Below are positions 2,163 to 32,600 of a DNA stretch of 64,000 bases, one piece after another. The DNA is from Balanoglossus misakiensis (taxonomy: Eukaryota > Animalia > Hemichordata). The stretch is taken from assembly GCA_040954595.2 (NCBI GenBank), contig CM082582.2, forward strand, positions 12,607,777 through 12,671,776, in the 5' to 3' direction. The notes beneath the pieces were generated by a model that was given only the letters and a program-made list of their open reading frames with translations, did no database searches and had not been told where the DNA came from. The translations under genes were made by a program, and so were the position numbers. Numbering within the stretch: position 1 is the stretch's first letter; every line of letters begins with the position of its first letter.

Positions 2163-5100
2163 TTAAACATCTGATACGCCTAGTGGTAGGACTTCTGTTT
2201 TGTTGTCGTCATCTAATTTTATAATTTCAATGTCCTTGACTTTAACGCCAAGACTCATTTTGCCGCAGGCTCTGCTTCCCAACCATCGGTGGGCAACGTT
2301 CAACGACTGGCGATTTCTTCTCCTTGCCAAGTCAGTCTGCAAGTCAATGTCCGACGCCCAGCGTCTCGAAATCGCCGCCGAGACGCTGGTGATTTCGGTG
2401 CGCTTCGCGTGACGGAGAGCTCCCGTTGTCTCGTCGACTTCTTCCAAGTGACCTTCCGAGTGGAATCGTGACATCGACGAAGCCGGGATCGTCGTCCACC
2501 ACAGCCGATCATCACCTTCGAGACTGTGCTGTGAGGGCGCCGCCACCGATGATGCCGACTGCCAACCCTCTAGTGTCCTCCTCTCCGTACTATCACTGAC
2601 CCTGTCGACAGTTAAATTTGTTCTCACAACTACATCCTGGGCAACGCTAGTTTCCCGTTTCCTTCTCAGTAGTCTGTCGATACTTAAACTGCTTCCCCTG
2701 TCCACAGTTTTCTGTACTTTTCTCAGTCCCTTCTCGCTGCTGAAACTGGCCCCTCTGAGGGAGGCCCTACTCGACAGTGGCCTGTCGTTACTGAAGCTTG
2801 CCCGTCTTTGCGGCCCACCCAACCTTGGCGGAGCACGAACGCGCGGTATGACAATCGGGCTGCCTGTCGCCAGTCTACCGTGTCGTTGACTTCTATCGCT
2901 GCCAAGCGAAGCATGTTCCGATCTGGGGTGCCTTGCCATTCGACGCGCTCCTTGCGGAGTCAGGCTTCTCGGCCGCCGCATCTCCCGTTCACCTGTGCCC
3001 GGCTTCAGTCCGTAAATAGCCGCGTTGTGTTCGACGTCACCTCGTCTTGTTCTCGCAGTGGTTATGAGGTCTCCAGCGCGGCTGTGAGTGGAGGGAACTC
3101 TGGCAACTATCGGAGCCGTACTCAAAAGCGTGCCCCCATCGGCGACGAGACCTTGTGACGCGGCGCTAGTAGCCGAGGCATCATCAGTCCGAACAAGAGT
3201 CGCAGAAGATCTGTTGCTGTCCGCATCCAAGATCTCTGCCCCATTACTCTGAGTTTTGGTGTAACTCCTGTTGTAGTACAAATCGTAAGGTGCAATGGCT
3301 TGTGGGTATCTATAGTCGTCGTACTCGTAATCGCTTTTCAGCAAGTATCTCTTCTTGCGCACGATTTTCTTTTTCACTTTCTTCCTCTCTCGGCAGCAGC
3401 AAAAGTAGATGATCACCGAAATGATAAACAGTAGTATAAGCAGTAACAGAATGAGTAATCCTATCAGAACGCCCTGGCTTAGTCCAGTCAAATTGGACAA
3501 AATGTCCAGGATGTTTCCTCCTATGAATACAAGAATATAAGAACAAGCATCGTTATTAACTTGGATGCCAGTACAAAAGGCGAGTTTGTCGGCCATTTTG
3601 AAAATAATGTTGAAACGCAGGCAAATTTTATGAGAACCTCAAAAGCTGCATACCTGTTTGACAGCTGGGTAGAGTTTCATCGCTATTATCGATGCAATTT
3701 TTGAAACTGTCACAGGTGTATTTCAACGGGAAGCACATCTGATGATCGCTATGGCAACAGAAAGGCGTCTTCCAGTCATCGGGTAGAACCTCTTCCAACG
3801 TGTCTGTCGAAAAAGTGAGAAAAAACACAGTGAAATGGTGAACACCGTGACAGGAATAATTCCGCCCGGTACATGTGATAAACGCGTGGTTTTTGGTATT
3901 TGTTTAGCTGTCATGGTTACCGGGTGTGTCCTGGGCAGTTTCACTCGTTTAAAAATCACGTTGTGGTATTTTTTGGGAAACCGTTAAAGGCGTTGGTCCA
4001 CTTTGGTTTTTTTTCCGACACTCCCCGGATTTGATGGAATGTTGTTAAGCCCTTACTTGCATTGAAGTCACACCCGTTATCAAAAAAGTGAATGCGTTGG
4101 CGTGAAAAGGGTTTGGCCAACAATATCTTTGTATCTATGAGTTGCGGCGACCCATGTGGTATCTGATTCACCTGTGTCTCAAGACACTTGCTTTTGCTGA
4201 ATGCATTTTACGCTATTATAGCGACTCGTGAGACTTGTTTAGCTATGTTGTAGACCACCTGTTGGCGGAAACATTTACGAATGCACACAAGGTTTTCCTT
4301 GTGCACACCTCGTGTGTTCAGGTTACTAGTATGAAACTAGCAGGTTTCTTGGTGAGAGCGCATATGGCATTATTTAGAATCGGCACAGAAAGCTAGACGA
4401 AAAGGCACGTTTCTCAGACTAACGCAATAGCAATTGTCTTCCTTACCCGATTTCTCTGTCTCTGGCAAGAACGCATTGAAGTAGGCGACAATGCCAGTGC
4501 TGTCCAGAAATTCCTGCGTGTCGTTGTGGTTGGTCACAAACTGCACCGTCAAGGAACTCCCGGTCGAGTTGACAGACTTCGGATAGCTGTCGCCACACAC
4601 CCCGAGACTTGGGGTGACCATATCAGCCTGGATGTTGTCACCGTCGTAGATCATAACTCTGTCGGTGTCGCAGTCTGGGGAGTAGGGAACGTCGAATGTC
4701 AAGAAGTTCAGTAGAATTCTCTGTCCATCATAAGGCGCCGTCACCGTTACTTTGCAATTGAGGTTGACCATCAGGTCGATGCCGAATTCAACGTGTCGTG
4801 TGTAGATGATTCCCGCTTCTGCCACGACAGTCTGCCAGCATATACCGGTGAACATGTTGACTGCAAAATTGAATGAAAATGCAATAGTTCACTATTATAA
4901 ACATCTTATAACCAAGTGTATAATAAAATCCTTATTATCGTAAAGTAGTTTTAAATTGAATGTACAGTTGCAATGTTACAGCCGATTGGCCAAAACTTTG
5001 TTAACAAGATACCTATTTAAGTATTTTGCAGTACTCTCTCCCCCGACTCTCCCTTCCTCCCTCCCTCCCCCTCTCTCCCTCTCATGTTTGTATTCAACAC

Positions 5101-6443
5101 ACTGCCTCTCACATGTCGTGAACTAATTCCAAGTTCAACGTGGCAGCATATCTGCGGCAATCACGCATGCGCTAGCTTCTTGATGTCGGGCGTTCTGAAG
5201 AGCACGTCCATTGCAAAATGCGAACGAGATATTGGGTTAATCCCACGGTCTCTCCGCACAGGACAGTGGTTGTTCTAAAACTTGAAAGCTTTTCTCGAAT
5301 TGGGTTAAGTCCCTCAGAGCAAAATCATGCATTTCACAAGTCGTCGCTTTTAAAGGCGGGGTTAGCATTCCTTGAAGTGGGTTATAAAAGCCACTATTAA
5401 CATTTAACCTCTTTTGAACAGAACTCCACTTCTCTCACGCTTAAGACCCTTGGTGTACGGCCCAAATAATCATGAACACGCAGCAAGCGACTTTGACTGA
5501 CAAGGAATGCAATACTAATAGATGAAGCATACATTTCTGTTTACCATTTACTGTTCAGCTGCATTGTACACGGAAATATCCCGTTGGTATATAAGTTTGG
5601 TCACACTTTCTACTTTGCATGCGATTGGTTTAGTTTGTAATTCAGTGTAACCACGGTAGCAATTGGCGGGAGAGTGATCCGGTGTTATAGTATGGTATGG
5701 TATGGTATATGGTATTGTATGGTGTTGTATGGTATGCACAACGGTTATTCGTCCTTTGATGCAGGACCGTGACGTCCTTGGCCGGGTTTTAGGGACTATA
5801 CGCTGGTAGGCGTTGTATTAAACCGAGGATAAATCACTTTTGCCATTTGACATGCTATTTGTGATGTCAAATTCTTTTCTGAATCTTCATGTTTCGTGAT
5901 TAAAAGGTAGACTATCACACCCAGGGCAGACAATTCAATTAATACAGTAGTTTCTCCTGGAGTATTCAGTATTAATTGACCTGGTGTATTGTTTTGAAAA
6001 CGTTATGTAACATATACTGACCCTCGGAGGCAAGGCTTACATGGTCAAACTTTAGATAAGTCCGTCCTTTTGGAACACATAGTAAATTTTCTGAAGTTCA
6101 ACATGAATGAGTACCATTTGTGCGAATTTGCATAAATTCGGCAAGTGTTTTGCATACAGAGGCCAGGGGATACATAGTTAGTCTCAAAAGAGTGAAGTAT
6201 TTGGTAAAGTAAACAGAGTTCAATAATTCCATTCGTATAGTCGAATGTTCGTGTTTCGTCGAAATGACGTCCATTTAGAGAAAAAGTTTTACACCTGGCG
6301 GCGTGGATTTGATAGAGCGTGCGATATGTCGACTTACCTTCACGATAAAGGAGCGGGTCTGCGTTCTGTCCATCGGCCTGACTGGCTAAAATATTTACCA
6401 GTGAAATTATAAGCAAAACGGACAGCATCATCTTTGACACCAT
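2163..6443 (-). CDS. CUB-LDLa-TM type I membrane protein, paralog 1; exons 6443-6338, 4860-4447, 3803-3654, 3520-2163 (about 675 aa)
   Basis: Signal-peptide exon (MVSKMMLSVLLIISLVNILASQADG), CUB exon (GICW..NLNC..LLNFLTFDV..C..DRVMIYDG..CG..STGSSLTVQF), LDLa exon (CDSFKNCIDNSDE..C), then TM, a CCC cluster, basic residues and a long cytoplasmic tail. All three introns are GT-AG phase 1 and the exon total (2028 nt) is in frame. Confidence 0.85.
5688..5735. repeat. Degenerate (TATGG)n microsatellite
   Basis: tagtatggtatggtatggtatatggtattgtatggtgttgtatggtatg seen directly. Confidence 0.7.
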
Positions 6444-9400
6444 TTCAGTGTTGTAATACCAGGCAGTGGAACATGTTCTGTGATTGCATGTATAGGCGCG
6501 AGTGTTCACCGGGACACCAGACTGAATATGCCCTACGTAAACGCCCTAAACATAAACACCAGATTGCACATCAACGTAAGGCACTTGTTGAGTATACGTA
6601 TATGTCGGTGTTTAAGGCACTTTTACATTTCCATATGAATGGAAAGACCAGTATAAAGGTTTAACGCTTGTTTTCTTTGCAACGACAGTACAGGGTGGGG
6701 CTCTCACAAAGGCGGTGACCCTTGAAACTTTCTTTGAGAAGTTAAAAGCGCTCGCATTACCAAACGCTTTGAAAGTGATAAACTAGTCTTCACTCAAAAA
6801 ATTCTGATTATCGTTTTCATTTTGCTTCGGGGGCAAAATAATAAGTCAAGTCTATTTCTGGGGCATTATTCGTTTACCTTATTCCATATGTATCCATTTA
6901 TGCTTAATAGTGCCTTCAAGCACATTCCTTCAAGAAAAGAGGGACTTTGCTTCAAGGCATGGCGCAATTCACGCCATGGTTTCAGACAGTGATATCTTGG
7001 GAGGAGTCAGACAATTCTGAATGTCTGAAAATTATTCGATCAATAAATACGGCTGACATACAACGCCCTCTAACTTGCAATTCGTCATTGATGCTATCAG
7101 ATATGAAAAAAGCGTTATAGGATGTACATGTACAGATGACCTATTAGTCAAGTATCTCTAACGAATCATTTGCCAATGGTTGTCCAAGTCTCTGTATCGG
7201 TGTCACGTGACCATGTCTATATTAAAACGGTCACGGGCGTGGCAAAATATCGATTGTTTGTCATTCAAAGAGATGTCATGATTTCGCAATAAACTTTTGC
7301 TGTAAAATCTTATATTGTGGCTTTTCGCCACACCTGCAAATTTCACCAGATCGCAACAAATCACGCCCTATATTTACAAGAAGTGACGCACGCGAATACT
7401 AGATCAGACTCAACTGCTGAGTTCCATTACTTTTTTCCTCTTTTCAATCACTTATTGTCATCTTTGTTGACGAATTCACTAGTTTTTCTATACAAAACTT
7501 GAAGAGGGCAGCGATTCGAGCCCATTGATCTATCTATCCATTGTCCGTCGTCCGTCTTCAAAGTAATTGCGATTACTTCATTTTAGCCACCAGCCACATT
7601 TCATGGTCCAATGCCGCCTAATATACCTAGAAGACGATATGCTAATTTGACCAAAATGAACAAGAATCTTAGACTTAATTGGACGCAAGGTTTCGATGCA
7701 AACTTGTGAATATGCAGCCTGTCGACTATGCGATAGAATCGCCACAAATTCAAATTCTTCTCAATGCATTCAATCCTATTCTTTATTGTTGACCAAAAGA
7801 TGTTCTTTATGGGGGATAGTCGTGATGTCTGCACAAATGATCTGACAAATAATAGTGACATCTTTTTAGTGTGCACTGGTCATCTCTAAGGAGGTGGGTT
7901 TAATTTAAACGCGTATTCTAGCCACTTCTAAACTAAAACAGCCTCTGGTTTAAAATGATATCTTGACATGGAGTTGCCCCCGGTATTACGCTTTCAATTT
8001 AGATCTGTGACGTCATTCTCCTGATATGAGATGCTTGTAGCAAACGCAAAAGAATGATTGTGTGACCAAGCCACCCAAAGCTAAGAAGAAAAGTGAATGT
8101 GATCACAGACACGCCTATTACACACTCGAACATGTAACTGGATACGACACAGGCATAAAATCGACATTCATACTCAACGCAGTAATGATTGCGTTCAGTT
8201 GAACATTAGAATGAGAATCTCACGCCTAGAAATCCTCAACATCCGACTGCTCTGTTCATGACGTCACCACAACTGACTCGTTGCGAGGTGTGACCGCCAA
8301 ACAAAATCTAGCACTACACATACTACCGTTTACTCGGTACAGGCAACTCGTTGACAAATTGACCACACTTGAATAAAAGCCACTGGACTCTCTGAACACT
8401 TTGCGTCTGTCCAGTGCTACTTAATACGAGAAGGCATTCTTTATCAATTTAATCTGCGTCTGCGCTATTACCAGTCCATCTGTACATAACTGTCCGCCAC
8501 CAAAGTGGCATCTGAGGTACTCAGTTGAAATTCTCTCTTTTCATGTTTAACGTTGCATTAGTGGGAAAGGTGACGTCATCTTGCATGAATGTCATTTTCA
8601 CTGGATAGACAGTATCCCACCTTAAATCTGAACCTAACTGTTTCTTTGTCATTCTTTTAACCAGGTGTGAAAACTTTTCCGACCAATCCGTAAAGCACTA
8701 CACGAAGTAGAAGACCAACTTTTAAAACCTGAACTGTGGGAATACCACGCCGTTTTGAGGTAAGCGAGTAATCGTCTTTTGGTTTTCAAGCGTCGGTGAC
8801 GCCATATTAATTAAGGATTAGGGATTTTAAAGAACAACACCAAATGCTGTCTGCAAGAGGCACAGTTCCTTTGGACCAAGACAGTTTCAAAAAAAGTTGC
8901 TGAGAGCGCGCGTATATTATTTCACGTACACTTTCTGTTTGTTGCCAAGTTACCTGGAGATGTTTGTTTTCCAGGGTGGGTATCTGGATATCACTGTTGA
9001 CACACGAAGCATTACGTCAGACAGTTACGAACTTTTTGAACCGCACGTTTTTATTTTCATTTCAATGGTTGCATAGCTAACTTATTGTTGTGTCCTGAAA
9101 ATGGCTAGACCAAAATAAATAACTGTCTGGCCTATGTGACACAAAAACGCCAACCTTTTGTAGAATGTAGTTCAATTACAGTTTATGTGCAAGAATGATA
9201 TTTGGAAACAAATTTCGACGACTGGATGTCGGAGTTGTTTCATACTAGATATTTTATTACATAATTTCTGAATAGATAAAAGTACATAAAACAAATCTTA
9301 TCACAAAATTAATTATAAAAACATTAAATTGTATTAATTGAAAAAAAATCATAAGAAGGATAACCGTCAAAGTTAAGTTGTCGATGTCGCCAGATGATTG

Positions 9401-18454: not shown

Positions 18455-18461
18455 TATAAAA
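18455..18461 (+). promoter_or_regulatory. TATA box of PMT promoter 1
   Basis: TATAAAA at 18455-18461, 44 bp upstream of the uORF ATG and about 200 bp upstream of the main ATG. Confidence 0.6.
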
Positions 18462-18498
18462 AGCAAACTCAACACAATCTTGTTGTTAGACTACATCT

Positions 18499-18576
18499 AT
18501 GACACCAAGAGGAAGACAACACAACTGCCGAAGTCGCTCCTTCAGCCGAACCCGTCAAGCAATCCACACTATCTAA
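18499..18576 (+). CDS. Conserved-peptide upstream ORF in the PMT 5' leader, 25 aa MTPRGRQHNCRSRSFSRTRQAIHTI
   Basis: Translated by hand from ATG 18499 to TAA 18574-18576. The length and the M..RGR..N.RSRSFSR.R.A[IV] pattern match the plant PEAMT/XIPOTL1 conserved uORF as I recall it, and it sits in the equivalent position upstream of a PMT gene. Confidence 0.88.
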   Translation: MTPRGRQHNCRSRSFSRTRQAIHTI

Positions 18577-18653
18577 ACCTGGTGGATCAGACAAGCCAAA
18601 ATTGGCATTTTCGTTAAAATTCACATTCGCACTTGGACCAGACTTCCGCGACA

Positions 18654-21600
18654 ATGGCAAATCCTGCTTCGTACGGTTAGTATTCAATATTTGTTAGTTA
18701 TAATCTTAGGCTATTAGTGGAGCCATGGAGAAACGAGATAAATTTAACATTTATTGCCGAATATTTTAGTGGATGTTCAGTACGTGGGCAAAATAATGTA
18801 ATTGACATGATGATGCTCCATTCTGATTGGATGCGGCAACTTCTCTGAGAGTGTCCATATCAGTTTGGGATATGAATAGTTGCTTTGGGGAAATATTATA
18901 AATGGCAACTGTTCTAAGGCATTGGTCAGTGCGTGGCCAGACATGGATCAGTCATGTAAGTAAAGGGGGTGCTTCGTACATCCACGTCCACACACAAAGG
19001 TTGGCAGTGCGCCTGCATTGTTTGTATTCAAATTTTCTATATGAATGAGTGAGCAATGCGGGCTGACCGGCTAAGCGGCTAGCCGTCATATACAGAACTC
19101 TGACCTTCCCGTACCTTGGCGCTTTAATAGCATTGTATGTTAATTTTTAAAAAATGGCTGAAAAGCGTACAGTTGCACATTGCTGATGGAACTCTATCAT
19201 GATGTGATCGATAAGTGTACACACATGATATGTTTATTATGTTGTATTAAACATGGATGTGGTGTATGTATGTATGTATGTATGTATGTATGTATGTATG
19301 TATGTGTGTGTGTGTGTGTGTGTCTGTCTGTCTGTCTGTCTCTGTGTCTGTATGTGTCTGTCTGTCTAGATTAACTTGTCCACTGAACTGACACATCACA
19401 AGCTTATAAAAGAGAATGTATGCGTATAAACATTTCTTTTGTCTGCTCCACAGAAAATGGTAACATTCGTAATGTTATGAAAGACTACTGGGTCGATCAT
19501 TCTCAAAAGGCAACCCTTGAAGAAATGATGTTGGACTCTCAGGCTAGAAGTTTGAGCGAGGCAGAAATGCCCGAGATCTTGTCTATGCTGCCCAGGGTAG
19601 AAGGAAAGAGAGTTCTAGAATTGGGTGCAGGTATCGGGTAAGTTTGCTATGCTGGTTTTGTATAGACTTGGGTCTTCAGTTCACAATAATGGGATGAGAA
19701 ATTGTATCGTCCTTTTAATCATATGTTCTCATTGCAGACGGTTTACAGGAATCCTGGCAAAAAGTGCCTCTCATGTCACAGCAGTTGACTTCATGGAATC
19801 CTTCATCACGAAGAACAAACAAAACAACAGCCACCACGACAATGTGGAGTTCGTCCGAGCTGATGTCACTCATGTGAAGTTTCCAGAAAGAAGGTAAGTT
19901 GTATCAGGAAGGTAATAGTCCCCCATTGCAATGCACACCAATCTTTTGATCACATGAAATATACACATTAGGTTTACTCATCATACCAGCAAACTTTGCA
20001 GAAGATATGCTAATAAGCCAGGAGAATTCTTATTTATAGTTTTTATAGTTTGCTACAATGCTGCAGTTTGTTTTAATTGTTTTTCCATGCGAGAATTATT
20101 TTTTAAATTGGGAAAGGAAAAATCCATGAAATAGATGAATGTGTGCCTTCTAAATTATTCAAATAGTGTCATCTGAACTACAGTGAAGTTTTAGAAAGGT
20201 CAATGAAGAGCTGTGAAAAAAAAATCGTACTTAATATTCTGATCATCCAGTATACAAAAAAAACTAGGGCACACTGGGTTCTGTTAATAGCAAATTTTTA
20301 TTGGAAAAACACTATTTGCAACTTGCACAGTGCACAACACTAATATTAGTATCTGTAATAGGGGATTGAGCTAATATTAGTATATAAGAGATTGGAATCC
20401 AGAAATATCTCACCAATTCACTTCACGTAGCAAGCAAGTCTACACTAAACCACTACCCAAATCCCCATCCCTCAAAAAGGATGTTTCAATTACATATGCA
20501 AGTTCTGAGCGTGTCACTCATCGACACGCATAGACAGACAGACAATTACAAACACACATATAATACATTCAGAACAGTGTTTTCATTGCTCAAGTGATAT
20601 TTTGTGGTTAAGAATTGAAGTGCATTGTTTTCTGTTGGACTCTGGCTTCCTATAATTAGCAGTGAAGAACTTTGGACACATCTAATAAAGTCCACTTGTG
20701 TATCTTTGTCTACGCTGGCATTTCCAGGTCACAGGTCAGCTTGTCCGAGATCTAGATACGTGTGATATTCTTACAGGTTTCTTATCTGGGAATAATCTTA
20801 AAATATTTCGAGTAATGCTCAAAACCTTCCACCACCATAATTTTGTTTTACCCTTTCATCACAATTGTTTGACCCAACTTTATTGTTCTCATTGCCAATA
20901 CTGGATCTCTCCAGAGGAAAATGGGGGTGATAGGTATTGAAGTTTGAAATTAGCATTAACAAGTAACTGTCAAAATGCTATTCACCCTGGTCCCTGTTGT
21001 TATGAAACAGTTGACCAGTGATATCAGTGCAGTCCATCATGTACAGTGCAAACTTTGGACCATAAGCAACCTTTAGCCAACCTACTTATAAACTGTACTT
21101 ATCCTTAAAGGACTGTACCATTTAGAAATGGGTGTTGCAGCATGTGATGGGCAACTCGATGTGGTGGACAAACAAGTAGAACAAAATTGAAAATACACAG
21201 AAGGAATTGAACAACTGAAAATGTCACCACCCAACAATTGCACAATAATATTTGACGACTTTTCTTCCCTCTTTTCCAGTTATGACATCATATTTTCCAA
21301 CTGGTTGATGATGTATTTGACTGATGATGAAGTATTGAAGCTGGCTAAGAATGCACTGATATGGCTGAAAGAGGGCGGCCTTTTGTTTTTCAGGGAGTCT
21401 TGTTTCCACCAGTCAGGTACGTACATGTTTTTGTGATTTGATTCATAACTTTCTGACAATTCATTGATGTATGAGAATGGGAATAGATTATAGGATTACT
21501 AATGTCTGAAAATGTAGAGAATGTGATGCGACATGTATGTGAATGTTAATCCCAATTGGAGGATAGAGAATTAATAATTTGTCTGATCATCTTTCAGGGG

Positions 21601-23794
21601 ATACACCACGTAAAACAAACCCATCCGTGTACCGGTATCCCACTCTGTACAACGCGATGTTTCAGAGCGTTAGTGAACCGATTGAAGGAGAGGAAACGCT
21701 GTCATTGGGATTTGACATCATTTTCACCAAGTCTGTGCAGACGTACATCAAGGTGAGACCAGCTGTGTTGAAAGTCAGTTGTCATAGAAGGATGGTTGTG
21801 TTTGGACGCCAGAATACGTTTTTCTGCTGTACTGTGACTTTTTGTGATGTGTTCACAATTCTTTTTTCATGTTAGCTTAGTTTAGATTTGTCACATTGAC
21901 AATAAGTGATACTTTGTGCCTACATCGTTCTGAATGTTTTCATCTCGTTCACAGATGAAGAAAAACCAAAACCAAATGTGTTGGTTGATGGAGAAGAAAC
22001 GAATGGAGAATGCTGCTCACCATGGATACAACACCTTCCAATCATTCCTGGACAACCAACAGTATTCTAAACAGGGGATTTTACGATACGAGAAAGTCTT
22101 TGGGGAAGGCTACGTCAGTACTGGTGGAGCAGAGACTACAGAAGTAAGGAACTTGGACATTCATATACAGACTGATCACAGTTGACACGAGATACATGTC
22201 TTTATACCCACTGACTTCTGCCTGGATGTTGATAGTGTCAGAATATATGGGAAACATTTTCAACATTCTGTTTTGTACAGGAATTTGTTGCCACGTTGAA
22301 GTTACAACCAGGACAGCAAGTGCTGGATGTTGGGTGTGGCATTGGTGGTGGAGACTTCTACATGGCCAAGGTAATCAGAAACCTTTACCCTTTCACTCTT
22401 GTGTAGCTGTATATAGGTCCAGCTTGGCTGTTGAAAACAATGAAGTAGGGCCAAACCATGGTGGCGAAAAGGTTCAGTCTCTGCTTTTAATATAGCCATG
22501 TAAAGTACATGAATTGAAATATCAATAATCTTCCTTTTGTGTGCAGAAATATGGTGTAGATGTGTTGGGAGTTGACCTGTCATGCAACATGATTGAAATT
22601 GCAATGGAAAGAGCTTTAAGTCAGGAAGGTGATCCTCAGGTAAGAGAGGTTTTGGCAAATAACAAGCGCATTGTATTCTAGAGTATTGGCCCAGGAGCCG
22701 GGAAGTAAATGACCTTAAGAAGAATTGTGAAAAAGTAAAACTGATAACATTAAAACAAAAATGTTGTAACATGATCTGTTGCCGCCTGTCTGTTTATTTT
22801 TAATCTCTGATATATTTATTATTTCTACTTCACATTTTAACAGGTACAATTTGAAATATCTGATATCACCAAGAGAGAATTTGACAAAGACTCTTTTGAT
22901 GTCATCTACAGTAGAGATACTCTTCTGCATATTCCGGACAAACCAGCCCTGTTTGTCAAATTTTTGGTACGTTGAGAAAACCTTATTTTGATCCCAAGAT
23001 CTTACTTTAATTACATGTAATATGAGCCTCACAAAATTTCAAAATCTCACTACCACTATTTTGTTCAAACTGTCAAGAAATGGACCAAACCAGGAGGAAA
23101 GGTGTTGATCAGTGATTATTGCTGTGGACCACCTGAAAATCATTCTGAGGATTTCAAAAAGTATGTGGCACAGAGAGGGTATATTCTATACACACCAGAG
23201 GAATATGGCAAGGTGAGAGAATCTCCAAGTAAAAAATTAGTTTCTGAAGCTCTTGAACTGAAAATAGTGTCATCTGTGTTTGGGCAACGAAATTTGCCAG
23301 AACAGAAATGAGTACAATGTCTTCTTGTTCTACAGTTGCTTTCAGCTGCTGGTTTTATAAACGTCCAAGCTGAAGACAGAACCGAGCAGTTTATTGCTGT
23401 TCTTGAGAAAGAGATTAAGGAAGACATCAAAGAAAGAAAAGAGGAGTTCTTAGAAGTAAGTTATCATTTCTCACTAGAGCCACAACACCAATGCGGCCAT
23501 GTTTTTTTGCCGCGCTGGCATGATAAGATATTAACCCAATCACCACCATGGTTTGGTCCACATCCATTGTTTTCTGTGGTAAAGTTGGACCTCTATATAA
23601 TAAACAGGGGTTGCAAGGGTTAAACTAGAACAAATCATGGCTGGAATATTTACACGTAGCCGTACCTTATCATCCCACAGGACTTTTCTGAGGATGACTA
23701 TCACTACATCCTCGATGGATGGGAGAGCAAACTGAAGCGCTGTGGAGAGGGCGATCAGCGATGGGGTTTGTTCTACGCAGAGAAACCGCTGTAA
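18654..23794 (+). CDS. pmt: Phosphoethanolamine N-methyltransferase (two SAM domains, plant/Xenopus type); exons 18654-18675, 19454-19637, 19738-19893, 21280-21416, 21598-21752, 21955-22143, 22281-22370, 22547-22639, 22844-22966, 23078-23212, 23336-23455, 23681-23794 (about 505 aa)
   Basis: Motifs include [99 protein letters not shown] and [12 protein letters not shown]. All introns are GT-AG with consistent phases, 1518 nt in total. Exon 1 (MANPASY, G|GTTAGT) was inferred from phase. Confidence 0.95.
18897..18961 (+). promoter_or_regulatory. Candidate alternative PMT promoter and mini first exon (TATAAA, Inr TCAGT, donor GTAAGT)
   Basis: TATAAA at 18897-18902, TCAGT at 18926-18930 (about 30 nt spacing), consensus donor GTAAGT at 18956-18961, and a reverse CCAAT box (ATTGG) near 18826. 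Confidence 0.45.
19263..19366. repeat. Compound microsatellite (TATG)n(TG)n(TCTG)n in PMT intron 1
   Basis: Seen directly. Confidence 0.9.
22388..22472 (+). mobile_element. About 85-bp MITE, copy 1 (PMT intron 7)
   Basis: Starts ccctttcac and ends ccaaaccatggtggcgaaaagg. It shares the core aggtcca...aaacaatg...ccatggtgg with the copies at 23535 and 30361. Confidence 0.65.
23535..23619 (-). mobile_element. About 85-bp MITE, copy 2 (PMT intron 11), flanked by TTAA on both sides
   Basis: TTAA|CCC...GGG|TTAA at 23531-23623. The internal caccaccatggtttggtcc..cattgttt..tggacctcta is the reverse complement of the other two copies. Confidence 0.7.
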
Positions 23795-26575
23795 ACGCAA
23801 CAACAGAGGAAAAACACTTGCCATCAAAACTTGATGAAACCTTATGATTTTGGAAGTCAAAATCTTTCATAGTGAAACAAAGCGAAGTTGATTTGTCTGG
23901 CATCAGTCTGAAGGCTGATACTTGGGTGATGGCACTATTGAAACAATTTTTATCCTCATTCTATCATTCAGTGTTTTATGGGATCATTTTCTGGATCTTA
24001 TGTAAAATCAACCCTTCTTCTTGAAGGAGCCATAGATACACTTTTATTAATTGTCACGTAGAAACAGTTGATTTTCAGTGTTTTACTCTATGGTTGACAT
24101 TATTTTCTTTTACTACAACTTCTTTTCTCCCGTCATTTCTTGTGTCCGTATATTCTTGCTGTGTTCACTGTTAAAAAAGCTTCATGAACAAGCTAGGGTG
24201 ATTTTACTTTTTAGACCTATCAGGCTCCCAAATTAAGTCATGCATTGAATGTTTGACAGAACCTATCATCAGGAATAAAAAAAACTTTAACTCAGATACT
24301 GGTGTGTCGAAGTCCTAGCCTTATTTTATGCAACCAAACTACCCTGATGGGAACATCTGGTTAGTGTTAGCATAATCTATAACTGCGAGCCGTTCTGATT
24401 GGTTATTTGACAATTGGCTTGTACCCAGGTGCTGGGCTTATATGTAAATTAGTCTTCCCTTCATTATACATGAAGCCCCTTTGCATGCATGTCAGCATGG
24501 GCAGGTCTACATCTACTCGTGATTTCTGCAGCAAATGACAGTGCAGTTCCTATCAGCCCCTGGAAACGTCATAATTAGAGGTAAGACTATTTTCCTCATG
24601 TTTATATCTACCTCTTCGAACAGCAGAAGTTTCATGCTATTGAAGCTGAAATTTATGACCATTTCAGTGGTTCAACTTGGACGATGACAAGGCATCTTTG
24701 CTCAAAGCAGCATGGCCGCCGTTGGCTTTGCAGCCTTTGCAATTATGTTGAACTGTTTTCCGTTCAAGATTTACAACAACAGAGTGAAATTATTTCTGTC
24801 AGTTTGAAGGGGTTTACAGTAATGAATGCCTCATACACAGTGAGAGCTTAGTTTTCTTGAATGTTAGAAATTTGATGGGGTTTCAGTGAAGTACTTGATA
24901 GGTAATTTGCAGTTACTTTACTCAGAACTGCATACAATCTCTTATGGGTTCAAGTTCACTGTATACACTAGTGTGTATTCATCAACTCTACCTCATTGGA
25001 CTTGATTTGGGAATTGATTGAGCATGTGTGCGCATATCTAGAATGTCTATCAAGAAGTTCATAGCCATAGAATTTAAGATTTTACAGTTACCATATCCAT
25101 GTAGTGCTTTGGTTCCTACTGGCAAAATATACTAGTATTTCGATTGTAATTTTGAAAGAAGCAAGATGCTATGCAACATTCTATACTAGGTTGATTTCAA
25201 TTTTGACAACCAACACACATCCAAACCACAAAAGTCAACAGACTTGAACGAAAATGATGATGATATACCAACAATTTTTATTTCAAATTTGCGCTATGCC
25301 TGTAAAGACATTAACATTTGTAGTAAGTTATGAAGCTCTGATGAAAAAAAAAGCAGATGTTTGATATTCATAACATAAAGCAAATAAGGCAAAACTGGTC
25401 TATGCCAACATTGACTATTAAACTGTGATGTCAATGTGCTTTGACTGCTTCAGCACTGTGTCTTGTGGTACCCAAACATGGCTATAGAGGGCACCATGAC
25501 GCCTGAAACAGAATCAGATTTTAGGGAAAACAGACAAAAATACAATATACTTTTTTATTACACTTTTTTACATATATAATCTCTGCCATGTTTCTAGATA
25601 TACGGGGCAACATAAAGTTTCAAAGATTTTCCAGTTGATCAGAACTGATAATTAAAGACAAAAAGATTTTTCCAAGACATTTTATTGGGGATTCTCTGTC
25701 CAACACTTTCTGTTTATCAATACTGAAATCTTTGCAAGCTCGTCAAACACTTCACTCAGAAGTTCAGAACCACTCAATGTTGCCATGTGTTTACTCATGA
25801 GTCATCCACGTCATGGACGAGTCTGAATATTGCTTAGTGATCATCATAACATGACATAACATCATCAATCCTTGTAAATATATATTAACTTCTGTGTTCA
25901 ACTGTGGCAGTCCTTGCATTTTCCACAAAAATAAACACTGACCTTTAAATTTAATAATTTGTAAATGAGTTACAATAAATCTAATTTTTAATGCTGGTAA
26001 GTCATGTGATGCCAACAGCCAGAAGTCATGAAATGAAAAAAAAATATTACTTTCATAAGCCCTTCTACCATCTGGGTGCAAAATCAATTTAAAAAGAAGT
26101 TAATCTGGCAAAATTTCACACATGGTTTCAGGTCCATACATAATTCTACCAATAAGATGATATACCATTATACCCCCCCCCCCCCCCCCCAGTACATTTG
26201 TAATCATCATAAATTGATTGGCATGTCTATACCTTGTACCTTATGCAAGTGGGCTGCAAATTGAATTTATTCATTCGTAAAAAGTGGCTGCACAAAATTC
26301 CAAGTCTTGGCTTGCATCATGGAGATTTCAGAAGAAACAAAATTGTTATGTGAAGATAACCTACAAGATTCTATCAGTAGAGCAGCATAGTAATGTTCAA
26401 TCTTTTTCCAAATTTTTATTCTCTTATCAACCCCACAAGATGTTCATAAATTTGTGTTGTGTCAAAGGCAAGACGCCAACAATATCTGTCTGTCCAGTAT
26501 TATGAAGTTTCAGTGACGTTATCACCAATAATTTTGGAAGTCCTACAACTGTAAGTTGCTTCAATAGTCCGATTT

Positions 26576-28693
26576 TCAGTTGGGGAATTCCGGTGGACCG
26601 TGTGGTATGAGCGAGGTGAAAAATGTCGACACAAAGTTCCAAGCAGTTTCCATGACACCAGGCTGTGGTTCCTGATTGCTATCGTCACTATCATCAGTTC
26701 CTGTCTGTTCAGTGGCCACATCGTCATCATTGGAACTCGTCTCCTCCTGTGGCTGATCTTCTGAGGGCGGAGTTTCATCTGGTGAATCTGTTGGTGATGC
26801 GACTGGTTGTTCTTCCTGTGGTGGTTCCTGGGCTTGAGCTGGTGGTGCACGGCTATTCCTTCGAATCTGTCTCCTACGAACTCTGAACCATCCTCCTTGA
26901 TAACTGGAAAATACAGCAATCACACAATGTAAACCGTCGCCACAACCTTAATTACATTCTTCTCTTGCTGCTTTTTTCTGGGAGTATCATCAACTCAACA
27001 CAAGTTATTAATAGTAAACCAAAACACAATCATAGCAGGTAACAGAGTAACACATTGAAAATATTGTACAGTACTTACAGATACATCAATGCAACAAATC
27101 CCATGACTAGCAGGAAACGGTCGATGGATGAATAGAAATACACAATGCTCAGAAGTAATCCAAATCTGCAAAACATATAAACATAGTCCAACCAATCCCG
27201 ATTCATCTCCTCCTCGTCATCATCCATTGGTGGTCCACCAACACCTGCATTCATTCGCACGTTTTGATTGGCCGGCTGGTTGTTGGCTCGGTTTTCATTG
27301 GCCTGTTGGGGTTGTGGGGGTGCAACATTCTGATTTGGCTGTGGTTCCTCCACTGCAGTTTCTGGTATTTGCCCCACTCCACTCTGGGACATGCTGCAAA
27401 GTACACACATACCATTATATTCTTATTTCAATTTCCAAGCATGTACGCACATATACTGTACACATGTACAAATACGTTGAAGATATCAGTATATTGGATG
27501 AACCCTAGCTGCAGGACTTGACTACTCATAGGAACAGGGGTCAAATATATTGTAAACCTACGTCACACAATTGTACTTACTAATGCATGTACTGCGACAT
27601 ATGCTGCATATACATGTGCTGCATCCACATGGCTTGATGTTGCTGCTGCTGGTGATGGTGGTGGTGATGGTGTTGATATTGCGGCATGTAATGTGGCACA
27701 TTGGCCTGCTGGTGTGGCTGCTGATATTGCATCATCATGTTAAACCTGACCGTACCAGCAAAAAAAAAAAAAAGAAGACTTGCAGTTAAAGTTAGATTAT
27801 TGTGTAAGGCACTGATTGGTTTAAATATGTCACATGACAAATATTTACATCTGGCATTCATCATCTCTTACAACCTTGAAAACTCTAATTCCGTGGATAT
27901 AAATTGCATGTACTCACATGAACGGGTTGAATGGGTGGTGTGCTTGCTGTTGCAGCTGGGGTGGTTGCTGCATCCCATTACCTTGTGCATTTGCCACATT
28001 TCTGTGTCTCAGATGGGTTCCATTATCACTGGCTGTCGGATTGGAGGTATTGTGGTTCGAGGTGCCATTCCCATTCCCGTTCCCATTTCCCGCAGTCATA
28101 TTAGCTACACTCGTGGCACACACTAAGTGCACAGTGTGCGCATTGCATTCTTCATACTGTTGAAGATTAAATCATGAAAACCATAAGTTATAATAATTAT
28201 ATACTGCTTACAATATGAAATTCTAATAATCATTGTAAAAGTTGCCAAGACATGTACATGTATGTTGTCTTACCTGACGCAGAATATCTTTCAAAGCCAA
28301 ATGGTCGTGTAGAAGTTTCCCAGAATATATGATTTTTTGGTCTTTTTCGGGCTGAAAGAAAATGGTAACACAGTTATGGCATTAAAGAGACTGTCAGAGG
28401 ATGACTGAGCCATATACGAATGCTTCCTTTCCCCCTAGGAATGTTGTACATGTATCTTGACCTTATGTTGTGTCAAAAATGCAAATTTATAAAAGATGAC
28501 ATCTGAATCCTCATTGTCAAGAAGGCACTGGTAGAAAGCATTAGTCTGTACTTACCGGTTTATTTGGGTAAACATTCGACAGATGACTTTTAAGCTTTCT
28601 CACTGTCCATCCAGCTACGCACTCTACTGTCTGATCATCTATTTTCTGGTTAGGTGCTTTGACTACTAGTGTTATGGTTTGCAAAGGGTCCAT
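26576..28693 (-). CDS. HERPUD: HERP/HERPUD ER-membrane ubiquitin-like-domain ERAD protein; exons 28693-28556, 28351-28274, 28156-27918, 27745-27581, 27393-27079, 26903-26576 (about 420 aa)
   Basis: N-terminal UBL (ITLVVKAPNQKIDDQTVEC..WTVRKLKSHLSNVYPNKP..QKIIYSGKLLHDHL.LKDIL..HTVHLVC), HLRHR, MNA..GPPM.DDEE..NRDWLD, SIVYFYSS..RFLLVMG and the C-terminal TAWNFVSTFFTSLIP..PP are all typical of HERPUD1/2. Total 1263 nt in frame. Confidence 0.93.
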
Positions 28694-29689
28694 TATTTTG
28701 GTGCCTTATATCCGGGTACTGTATGCAAGTGACCGACGATTGATGATGTGTCAAACAGTCTCTTCTATTTTTCTCGAATGCCTTGTCGGACGTCTTTATG
28801 TACTACTTGTACTTACAAATGCGATGAACACCAAATAATCTGTCGTGGGTTGGTATCGTTGATTGTAAGGCTCACTCTGCTAGGAAAATACCAGGGTCTT
28901 CGTAGCATACGTAACGCAACGTCGGATATAAATATACTGCTTCCGGTAAACAATCGGACGATAAATCTGGTCAAAGCTTGATCCTGTGTATCTCAGAACA
29001 CCAGAAACCAGTCGTAAATATCCAAAGTGTCGGTAGACAACGAATGTATCTTAATATGCCTCTTTTACTCGTCAGCAGACAGCGTATTCATCAGCTCGAC
29101 ACAAAACAACACCTAGTCCATTACACCACAAACCACCCAGAAAGATAATGGCAGCTGGTCACGTGACCAGCTTTTACCTTACGATTTTTTGGTTGATAGG
29201 GCGTTCTCTGATTGGTTGGATCTTGTCGGGAATTTTCGGAAACCTCCCGAACTAAAATTCACCTCTCCTGAGGTTATGGCTGTAAAAATTATGACAATCC
29301 CTCCAATCCCATGCTGTACTAGTCTAGTTCCCTATTGTATGCGCGGTCATGCTGTAAAAATTCAGAAATGCGGCAAGGACCAAGGTCAAAGATCATAACA
29401 AACGTCAGTGACTGACATAGGGGGTATTGCGTCCGGAAGTGATTTCTTTGCAGGTCACCTAGGGGATCATTGATGACCGCTATATGTAGATTTCTATGGT
29501 CTGATCGATAATTTTGGTACCGTTATATGCATATTATGTAGTGTTGATTATCGTGCTTGACCTTAGGAGTTCGGACACTTCCTATTCTTTCCGGGCCATA
29601 TGTGAGTTCTTCGACGCGAAATTGCAGTAAATCATAACAATTCTAACCTCGGAGAAGCAGACAGCGAAGGTTTGATTCTCTTCGCCAAG
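28694..29689. promoter_or_regulatory. About 1-kb divergent promoter region shared by HERPUD and LPCAT
   Basis: The ATGs are at 28693 (-) and 29690 (+). The region has the 20-bp palindrome AGCTGGTCACGTGACCAGCT (29153-29172), an ETS-type CCGGAAGT (about 29434), CTTCCGG (about 28940) and ATTGG (about 29211). Confidence 0.65.
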
Positions 29690-32600
29690 ATGAGCGAACG
29701 ATCGAACCCCAAAATCCCTCGACAAGAGTCGTTAATGGTGCCCCTGGTCCAGAACCCCTTCGTGCACAAACTGAATTTAACATTACGTGATAAAATTAGG
29801 GTAAGTATGTAATATTCGTGAGTTTAATTTTAGTGCTGGTGTTGTACACATAACTAATTGAACGTGAACAAGCACGTAACAAAGTGTTGTGCAACGGAGT
29901 GTCCAACAAGTTGCATCATCACATCTCAGTGACATCACTGAAATTATACACAAGCACATCAGATATACATGTATAAATTACATGGTACATTATATGTATG
30001 AAACCAAGGCCACGCATGCTATATTTATCCCTGACAACACATAGCAGACAACTGTGCCCTGCCCTTCTGCTAACTGTTTCCACACACTCAATAAACCACA
30101 GAGCAATGACACCTAACCCATAACAAGCTATACAGCTGTCTACTACCTTCTGCAATATCCAAATAAATTTTTATCTGTCTATTCTTTCAGATTGCCATCT
30201 GTACAGTGACACTTCTCCCACTGCGACTGATTGGCATCGTGGTCTTCCTGATCATTGCTTGGATCATAGCGCTCATCGCCTTGGCAGGGATCAAAGATGA
30301 AGAAATGACTGAACCCCTCTCTGGATGGAGAAGGTATGGCAGGCATTAGAGTGTCATTAACCCTTTCACCCCCAGTTCCCTCTTTAGAGGTCCATCATTA
30401 CCATAGGAAACAATGGGTTTGGACCGAACCATGGTGGTGAAAGGGTTTCTGTTCACTTCAAAGAGTTTGTTGGTGGGAAGTTGATTGGGGTCTTTCATCA
30501 CAGATGCCTGTCAGTGTCTGACTCTGATGGATGTAGTGTTTTAGCGAAATGAGTTATATTATCACTCAGTCACAGAATATAGATGCTCGGTGTAGAGCAT
30601 GTAAATAACTCATTATTTGGAAATATGCAGTGGTGTTCATGATGAAAACCCCCAGATATAGTATGTGATACAGAATGAACCAGACACACCCAATGACAAT
30701 AAAACAGTGCAATGCTGTTGATATAAATAGAATTACCAGGGTTTAAAGTAGGAGACATAATGCAAATGTATTTTTTTATTTCCATTTGATTGATCACATG
30801 TGTAATAATGACGAGGGCCACAGACAGTAAGGCCAAAAAAGAAACGGGTTTGCATGATACCAAAAGTCAGACACATCTGTTTGTAACTCAACATATCTCC
30901 TGCACCTGAAAAAAAAGGAAAATGGTCACTGCTGCATTTCCAAATAGTGAGAAGTCGCAAAATTCTTTTATTGGCCTGGGCTGATCACAAATGGAGTACT
31001 GCAGGAGGCTAGGGGGTCACCTGCATTTAAAAGAGAGAGTTCAGAATACATGGCTTTCTAGAGGTGTTTCTTTCAGATTGTGTTCCCTTCCTGATATTAA
31101 TTAACTAGATTTTTCTTACAGAACTGACTAGTGAATGTTTTTATGTGTGTGTCAAATACATGCATGCTATCTCCTTACAGAAGTTGAAGTAACACAAATG
31201 TGGTTGTACATATGCACCAATCTACAAAAGCATTTCATAACCGTCATATTTCATTTATATACAATACATGTACCATATGTCCTGTCACCTCGTTTCGTGC
31301 TTTGTTTGTTCTGTGACTTACATGCACCTTTCATATAACTCACACACACATACACATACAACACATACTCACACACACACACACACTGTCACAGAATATG
31401 CGTCTGTCTCAGATGGCGTCCTCAGCTAACCTTTACTAACCACTACTAACCAACTAACAATATCTGTGTGGATTTAACCTCAAGCTAATAGCAACACTGC
31501 GTTCCTGTAGAATAATCCCTGTAGAGATTGCATCTACTCACCTGCACATTCTTTTTGCCACCATGCAGGAAACTAATCATACCAGTTACCTTGGCGACCA
31601 AACTAGGATTCAAATGTGGCGGCTTTGAAGTCGTAGCCAAGGGTCAAAGGTCAACTACGGCAAGAGCTCCATTGCTTGTAGTTGCACCTCATTCCAGCTA
31701 TTTTGATGCCATTCCTTTCCCTATTACGTTAGGGATGCCAGCTCCAGTGGCCAAAACTGAAATTGGCGATATTCCTTTCTTCAGAAGTATGTCGTACCTA
31801 ACAGTGCAATCGTCCTCACCATTTATTTAACACACCATATTAAATGATGTACACATAAAGTGCCTCTAAAGTATCACAATAGCTGACAATGGTGTCCCAT
31901 AAAACTTCTGGCCTGGTTGCTTTTCCTTAAACAGATAAATTTCCATCAGTTAAATTTATCGTCCAACTGTTAAAAAGTAATACTGGCAAATTCTCTCTTT
32001 TTCATTTTCATTTTCCTGTCTTGTTTTAAACTTGCTCAAAACTCGTCTTTAAAGTTTTGACTGTGAATGACTTTTTTTCATGATTTCCCAACAGATGGTT
32101 GAGGGACTACCCATATTTCTTCGCTCTCAGGGCGGTCTTCTTTTCTTCTGGATTTCACTGGCTGAAATTCAGGGGCCAAAGGGCATCATCAGTTGAAGCG
32201 CCTGTGGTGGCCATTGCACCCCACTCCACTTACATTGATCCTTTAGTCGTCCTTTTCGCTATCGCCATTCCTACTGGTGTTGGACGAATTGAAACTGCCA
32301 CTACTCCCATGGTTGGAAGTACGTTTCTCTGACAAATTCCAAATGAGACAACTTTTATTACAAAACACATTTGCAAATGCTCAGTGTAAACCGGTATTTT
32401 TCAGATACCATAGTCCCCCATGTGAAAAAAAAAGATAAAAGTTAGAAAAATAAAATCTACAGGCTCAAACATTTGTTTTTGAATGTACCAGTATATATCC
32501 TATTCCAAATTGTATTAGGGGAATACAGCTGACCACATCTTAGCAGACTTGAAAAACCTTACTGCTGAATGAAGCTTTGAGCTGGATTTGCTTTCATTGC

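Follow-up and report, generated by a model that had tools for sequence, protein, structure and literature searches.

An upstream open reading frame belonging to the plant HG13 family, with an animal-type C terminus, in the leader of a hemichordate-type phosphoethanolamine N-methyltransferase gene: a likely choline/phosphocholine-gated arrest peptide

The leader of a phosphoethanolamine N-methyltransferase (PMT) gene in the 64-kb stretch of DNA analyzed here, termed the window, contains a 25-codon upstream open reading frame (uORF) that is, judged by its peptide, a member of the plant CPuORF homology group 13 (HG13; XIPOTL1/NMT1, PEAMT). We consider it likely that the uORF is an animal HG13 member encoding a choline/phosphocholine-gated ribosome-arrest peptide, which would lower the translation of PMT. 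An earlier sequence-only reading of this DNA proposed a regulatory peptide shared across kingdoms; the homology holds, and the animal presence of the family is already known and not new, an HG13 uORF in Xenopus tropicalis having been in print since 2007 (Hayden and Jorgensen, PMC2075485; the accessible text describes it as genome-checked, lists X. laevis and suggests a widespread role). New are the invertebrate member, the animal-type C terminus of the peptide and the occurrence of such a peptide ahead of an ATRR-like gene in the metagenome contig L011, the last two being absent from the sequence-only reading.

The uORF spans positions 18499-18576 of the forward strand and translates to MTPRGRQHNCRSRSFSRTRQAIHTI followed by the stop codon. 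A 77-nt spacer without AUG (18577-18653, forward strand) separates this stop from the PMT ATG at 18654, with a frame offset of 2. The uAUG lies in a weak context with T at -3 and is the sole ATG between a TATA-like element, TATAAAA (18455-18461, forward strand; putative promoter), and the main start, which lies in the strong context acaATGG. Re-reading of the sequence confirms the uORF as a real feature and agrees with the sequence-only reading in the coordinates of the uORF, the TATA element and the PMT start as well as in the contrast of a weak uAUG with a strong main AUG. A pyrimidine-rich stretch with an AG at 18488-18489 (18478-18492, forward strand) may be either an initiator-like transcription start about 33 nt past the TATA element or the acceptor of an intron, 9 nt ahead of the uAUG, and similar AGs are found 10-12 nt ahead of the uAUG in the related loci L011 and L054. 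An in-frame TAG (18487-18489) shuts the uORF frame on its upstream side, and the uORF would be contained in the mRNA both with a TATA-directed start and with an acceptor at 18489. The leader (18485-18675) has a fold z of -0.15, indicating no stable structure, and an Rfam search of it returned no match; with synonymous sites saturated and the flanks unrelated among related loci, a structured RNA leader or riboswitch is rejected.

The main ORF is assembled from 12 GT-AG exons between 18654 and 23795 and is intact, giving an open 505-amino acid protein. Coding exon 1 (18654-18675) is 22 nt long and ends at a phase-1 GTTAGT donor, and it is followed on the same forward strand by exons 2-5 (19454-19637, 19738-19893, 21280-21416, and 21598-21752), exons 6-9 (21955-22143, 22281-22370, 22547-22639, and 22844-22966), and exons 10-12 (23078-23212, 23336-23455, and 23681-23795), all picked by GT-AG borders, open frame and best match to the ortholog P0002. 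The acceptor of exon 10 (23078) has a poor pyrimidine tract and was picked by the best ortholog match. The splicing of 18675 to 19454, as drawn in the sequence-only reading, is supported because the N terminus of a longer Ptychodera flava isoform (P0028) reads across the same join (Y-ENGNIR, compared with ..Y|ENGNIR in the window). The product is a two-domain PMT with 80.8% identity (395/489) to P. flava XP_070574723 and 56% identity to the Selaginella and Klebsormidium enzymes, and a comparison of the P. flava ortholog with PDB entries gives those of Arabidopsis PMT (5WP4 and 5WP5) at ~1e-177. The window PMT groups with the enteropneust PMTs in quick trees (SH-aLRT 100), which identifies the gene on sequence grounds as a hemichordate-type PMT, makes an acorn worm the most probable host and upholds the earlier placement of the uORF in an animal PMT leader. 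This gene and the Arabidopsis CPuORF30/HG13 loci both begin their coding sequence with a short exon that is followed by a phase-1 intron. The exon ends in A-S-Y in the window as well as in the Arabidopsis NMT1-type locus L007 and the NMT3-type locus L029, and in T-Y in P. flava; the intron position is likely an old one common to both, and the agreement in residues could be coincidental. At least four proteins of P. flava are PMT-like (P0028, P0076, P0081, and P0082).

The peptide aligns with the NMT1-, NMT2-, and NMT3-type peptides ungapped over its whole length with 14/25, 14/25, and 15/25 identical residues, in line with the homology to the Arabidopsis NMT1-3 uORFs that had been proposed. 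The DNA is identical at only 40/78, 38/78, and 37/78 nucleotides, respectively, and the three serines shared by the window and the plants all switch between TCN and AGY codons. As in the plant family, the uORF has 25 codons with both termini fixed and precedes a PMT ORF that is read in another frame; the core G-[RK]-x-x-N-x-R-S-R-[ST]-F-S-R-x-R-x-A is present, and residues Asn-9, Arg-11, Ser-12, Arg-13, Phe-15, Arg-17, Arg-19, and Ala-21 are common to the window peptide and the plants. Arginine and serine together account for 9 of the 25 residues (36%), one residue short of the range of 40-48% published for Arabidopsis and rice (PMC2075485), which we take as descriptive and not as a criterion; Thr-18 takes the place of a serine, as it does in several plant peptides. 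Scored with a profile built from 19 distinct plant-type peptides, the uORF reaches 36.6 bits, compared with -3.1 for the runner-up among the window's 37,399 25-mers without a stop and with none of 200,000 shuffles attaining its score; there is some circularity in these values, since the plant peptides came from a search with a pattern drawn from the window. An independent check on the family identity is given by the published ESUCA table, in which the Arabidopsis HG13 entries equal, by eye, the peptides of L007, L030, and L029; the part of the ESUCA supplement seen gives each Arabidopsis HG13 peptide as 25 amino acids with Ka/Ks of 0.03-0.04 (PMC7106846). The peptide is not covered by any Pfam family, and an exact copy of it is absent from the protein collection searched.

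Relatives were collected with a degenerate DNA pattern in which the ATG and 11 core codons are fixed and the stop is free, a design with a fixed start register to which variants of other lengths are invisible. The scan yielded 56 loci in metagenome contigs, none in viral contigs and none in prokaryote genomes. Distinct sequences among them number 34 as DNA and 26 as peptides, and they are related to one another. All 56 have their stop at codon 26 (TAG 19, TGA 19, and TAA 18) against a background of 0.044 (4.4%) among comparable ORFs of the window. A PMT lies downstream on the same strand in 49/56 loci; among the remaining seven, L041, L043, and L053 are plant-type with <300 nt of downstream sequence, L011 and L014 precede other genes, and L024 and L054 have a splice donor after which no coding match was found downstream. 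No distinct uAUG has A at -3 (0/34), and 27/34 of the next AUGs have a purine there. In each of two loci, L005 and L010, a single spliced transcript carries the uORF together with a complete PMT. The reading of the window uORF as a chance ORF, as lying off the mRNA or as plant contamination is largely excluded and retains next to no probability, as it is opposed by the profile score, the conserved stop and the two transcripts, by the grouping of the PMT with those of hemichordates, and by the intron-rich neighborhood.

Several of these loci have individual features. A single PMT leader in L035, on a plant-type contig, contains two intact HG13 uORFs arranged in tandem at a distance of 164 nt. 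In L005 two tiny extra AUG-stop ORFs precede the conserved uORF (L005:1-98), and the PMT start is placed only 6 nt past its stop. L017 (971-1048, reverse strand) has an HG13-type uORF ahead of a divergent PMT that falls on a long branch outside the plant and animal groups, which suggests a protist member.

A difference between the window peptide and the plant peptides occurs at the C terminus. Glu-23 and Gly-24 are present in 19/19 distinct plant-type peptides (end A-[IV]-E-G), and the window has His-23 and Thr-24 in their place, so that it lacks the plant E23-G24 signature and represents a variant of HG13. The residues I22-H23-[ST]24 (animal-type end A-I-H-[ST]) are common to the window and five loci, namely L005, L010, L011, L024, and L054, His-23 being present in 5/5. 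The animal-type grouping rests partly on this C-terminal motif itself, with independent evidence of origin for L005, L010, and L011 and not for L024 and L054. In quick trees the PMTs of L005 and L010 are placed with the animals where plants and animals divide (SH-aLRT 100); a tree with both beside plants and algae is not rejected (p-AU 0.35), so their origin may be early-branching or non-animal.

Among these sequences the peptide is retained more closely than the DNA. The window peptide is identical to those of L010, L011, and L024 at 21/25 residues, at only 51-57 of 78 nucleotides, and the flanks of the uORF are unrelated among the window and the animal-type loci. Pooling the 15 pairs of the window and the five animal-type loci gives pS 0.82, pN 0.26, and pN/pS 0.32, and the 13 pattern-free codons of the same six loci give pS 0.79, pN 0.36, and pN/pS 0.46, all values being uncorrected and near saturation with non-independent pairs; the single pair L005-L011 has a pN/pS of 0.94. 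These ratios point to purifying selection at the peptide level among the animal-type loci and thereby support the conservation in relatives that the sequence-only reading anticipated. Its proposed check of dN/dS<1 is borne out in the animal-type pool and does not extend across kingdoms, as the pN/pS of the window compared with plants on pattern-free codons is 0.68-1.21, with no purifying signal outside the core.

Purifying selection alone cannot separate a function in cis from one in trans. A dual role was floated by Hayden and Jorgensen in the accessible text of PMC2075485, and the uORF could encode an RS-rich micropeptide that acts in trans as an RNA-binding or SR-protein-like factor, with any effect on PMT incidental. 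We regard this as improbable, given that the peptide always lies in a leader behind a weak AUG with a fixed stop position and that no fused or internal copy occurs in 267 proteins, mostly PMT and ATRR homologs, which is a narrow test.

In locus L011 (positions 4001-8062) a GTGAGT donor lies immediately after the HG13-type uORF (4001-4078), and next comes an ATRR-like gene in place of a PMT. An acceptor and a strong ATG (5792) are located ~1.7 kb past the uORF, and six GT-AG exons encode 261 amino acids of an adenylation domain, after which the locus ends; the gap between the uORF and these exons has no match to any protein fetched. A 43-amino acid exon used as the query retrieved 73 proteins, one of which is named glycine betaine reductase ATRR, and the best full-length matches are animal proteins of ~1,270-1,300 amino acids with AMP-binding, PP-binding, NAD_binding_4, and adh_short domains. 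The L011 domain has 58-65% identity to the A domain of these animal A-T-R1-R2 proteins, with the match starting at their N terminus, and it retains the F-x-x-W motif of the aromatic cage described for ATRR (Hai, Huang and Tang, 10.1101/559534), as judged by spacing. Fungal ATRR converts glycine betaine to choline and has orthologs in invertebrates (10.1101/559534), and the L011 gene is therefore predicted to be ATRR-like and to make choline by a route unrelated to PMT. ATRR regulation in that work is feedback inhibition of the enzyme by choline, and its main text has no uORF; L011 shows one. The link is seen in genomic sequence of a single contig, and the ATRR-like gene could have its own promoter or lie within a long PMT intron; no ATRR gene is found within the 64-kb window. 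In a further locus (L014:251-937, on a eukaryotic contig of 64% GC) a uORF with the intermediate end H23-G24 precedes a spliced thioesterase-like ORF, for which a search of cluster representatives recovered nothing beyond the ORF itself and a single repeat artefact, and an atlas search only weak thioesterase leads; this gene is without a known choline link and counts against a choline-sensor reading. The broader proposal, that HG13 serves the eukaryotic ribosome as an old and portable sensor peptide for the choline head group and that its animal variant stands before both PMT and the NRPS-like ATRR and coordinates the two routes, is given slightly less than an even chance.

Choline and phosphocholine interconvert, so either suits both genes. 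This weakens the view that the animal peptide represses in a sequence-dependent manner in response to another signal, such as choline, glycine betaine, CDP-choline or SAM, or to one relayed by a protein, for example an RS-repeat kinase, instead of being bound within the tunnel. That the C terminus departs from plants (His-23 and Ser/Thr-24 compared with Glu-23 and Gly-24) and that the product of ATRR is free choline rather than phosphocholine (10.1101/559534) both favor it; the eight core residues in common with the plants oppose it, and on balance it is unlikely but deserves weight.

A choline/phosphocholine-gated arrest peptide is the preferred reading. Leaky scanning with conditional arrest fits the locus because the uAUG is weak and the main AUG strong, because the sequence and length of the peptide are conserved, and because (phospho)choline enzymes lie downstream. 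Most scanning subunits would pass the weak uAUG and make PMT, and a minority of ribosomes would translate the uORF. At high (phospho)choline the nascent Arg/Ser/Phe core in the exit tunnel and the ligand would together halt the ribosome at or close to codon 25-26, and the halted ribosome would block scanning subunits, providing end-product feedback on phosphatidylcholine head-group synthesis. Speculatively, Phe-15 may touch the trimethylammonium and the arginines the phosphate or the rRNA. Repression of the PMT ORF that depends on both ligand and peptide is a probable outcome, and that such repression proceeds through arrest near the stop codon is favored with less assurance. In Arabidopsis, phosphocholine represses the main ORF behind CPuORF30 with the mRNA level unchanged (accessible portions of PMC3426882, PMC7503886, and PMC11062462); stalling on the Arabidopsis HG13 uORF is described as proposed in the portion of PMC6380273 seen, and the sequence dependence of the plant HG13 effect is given as undetermined as of 2007 in that of PMC2075485. 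In plant regulatory uORFs and arrest peptides it is often the residues of the C terminus that are critical (PMC4330380, available part), so the H-T end may change the ligand or ribosome specificity, and the replacement of the invariant plant E23-G24 by H23-T24 is a point against the arrest reading. Plant CPuORFs can also trigger NMD (PMC9305500, accessible text), which leaves some room for a constitutive dampener or NMD trigger that senses no metabolite in animals; we consider this highly improbable, as a passive uORF would need neither 14-15 residues in common across kingdoms nor a recurrence ahead of a second choline enzyme.

Among metabolite-gated arrest uORFs, the fungal arginine attenuator peptide and the SAMDC/AMD1 polyamine uORF share the layout. 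The bZIP11 sucrose CPuORF does so too, the layout being a short conserved peptide with a fixed stop ahead of a gene for an enzyme or regulator of the sensed metabolite (PMC3426882, PMC4330380, and PMC6380273, in the parts available). These systems differ from the window uORF in their ligands, no sequence kinship is expected, and arrest is shown there and predicted here. A close counterpart is Arabidopsis CPuORF30/HG13 (XIPOTL1/NMT1, NMT2, NMT3), for which Tabuchi 2006 and Alatorre-Cobos 2012 are reportedly the primary papers and with which the window uORF has in common the 25 codons, an ungapped identity of 56-60%, the downstream enzyme family and the weak uAUG. It is distinguished from CPuORF30 by its end Q-A-I-H-T-I compared with x-A-[IV]-E-G-x, by an N-terminal T-P compared with Q-Q, by its animal host and by being known from sequence alone. 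The Xenopus group-13 uORF is likewise an HG13 uORF in an animal (PMC2075485, accessible text), and the window differs in having an invertebrate deuterostome as host; the same text reports neither a functional test nor an ATRR link for Xenopus. The literature searched, with most subscription papers outside it, contains neither a functional test in animals nor an invertebrate member nor a link between a uORF and ATRR, and nothing on phosphocholine stalling by a PMT uORF since 2013 or on PMT evolution with amphioxus. The parts of PMC2527020, PMC9305500, PMC7530721, and PMC11050029 seen hold nothing on animal HG13, and the supplement of PMC7530721 may list a zebrafish pmt uORF.

Metabolite-sensing uORF peptides common to plants and animals are few. 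The contrast of one core with two fixed C termini in plants and animals amounts to natural mutagenesis, which would single out candidate ligand residues as opposed to lineage-ribosome residues. If the ATRR link holds, it would add independent genetic evidence that choline status is sensed and that the arrest peptide is movable between genes. A candidate switch of 78 nt that responds to choline in animal cells would also follow, as would a target for cryo-EM of the stalled ribosome.

The PMT gene is flanked upstream by a gene for a CUB-domain membrane protein (PF00431; 15600-17400, forward strand) and downstream by a gene at 26500-28700 on the reverse strand, presumably HERPUD-like, for which no Pfam match was obtained. 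About 6 kb downstream of PMT lies an acyltransferase gene (PF01553; 30100-38600, forward strand), which we take to be LPCAT-like and which is possibly another phosphatidylcholine gene adjoining PMT. One of its exons occurs in three similar versions, near 31525, 32084, and 34103, which are possibly mutually exclusive.
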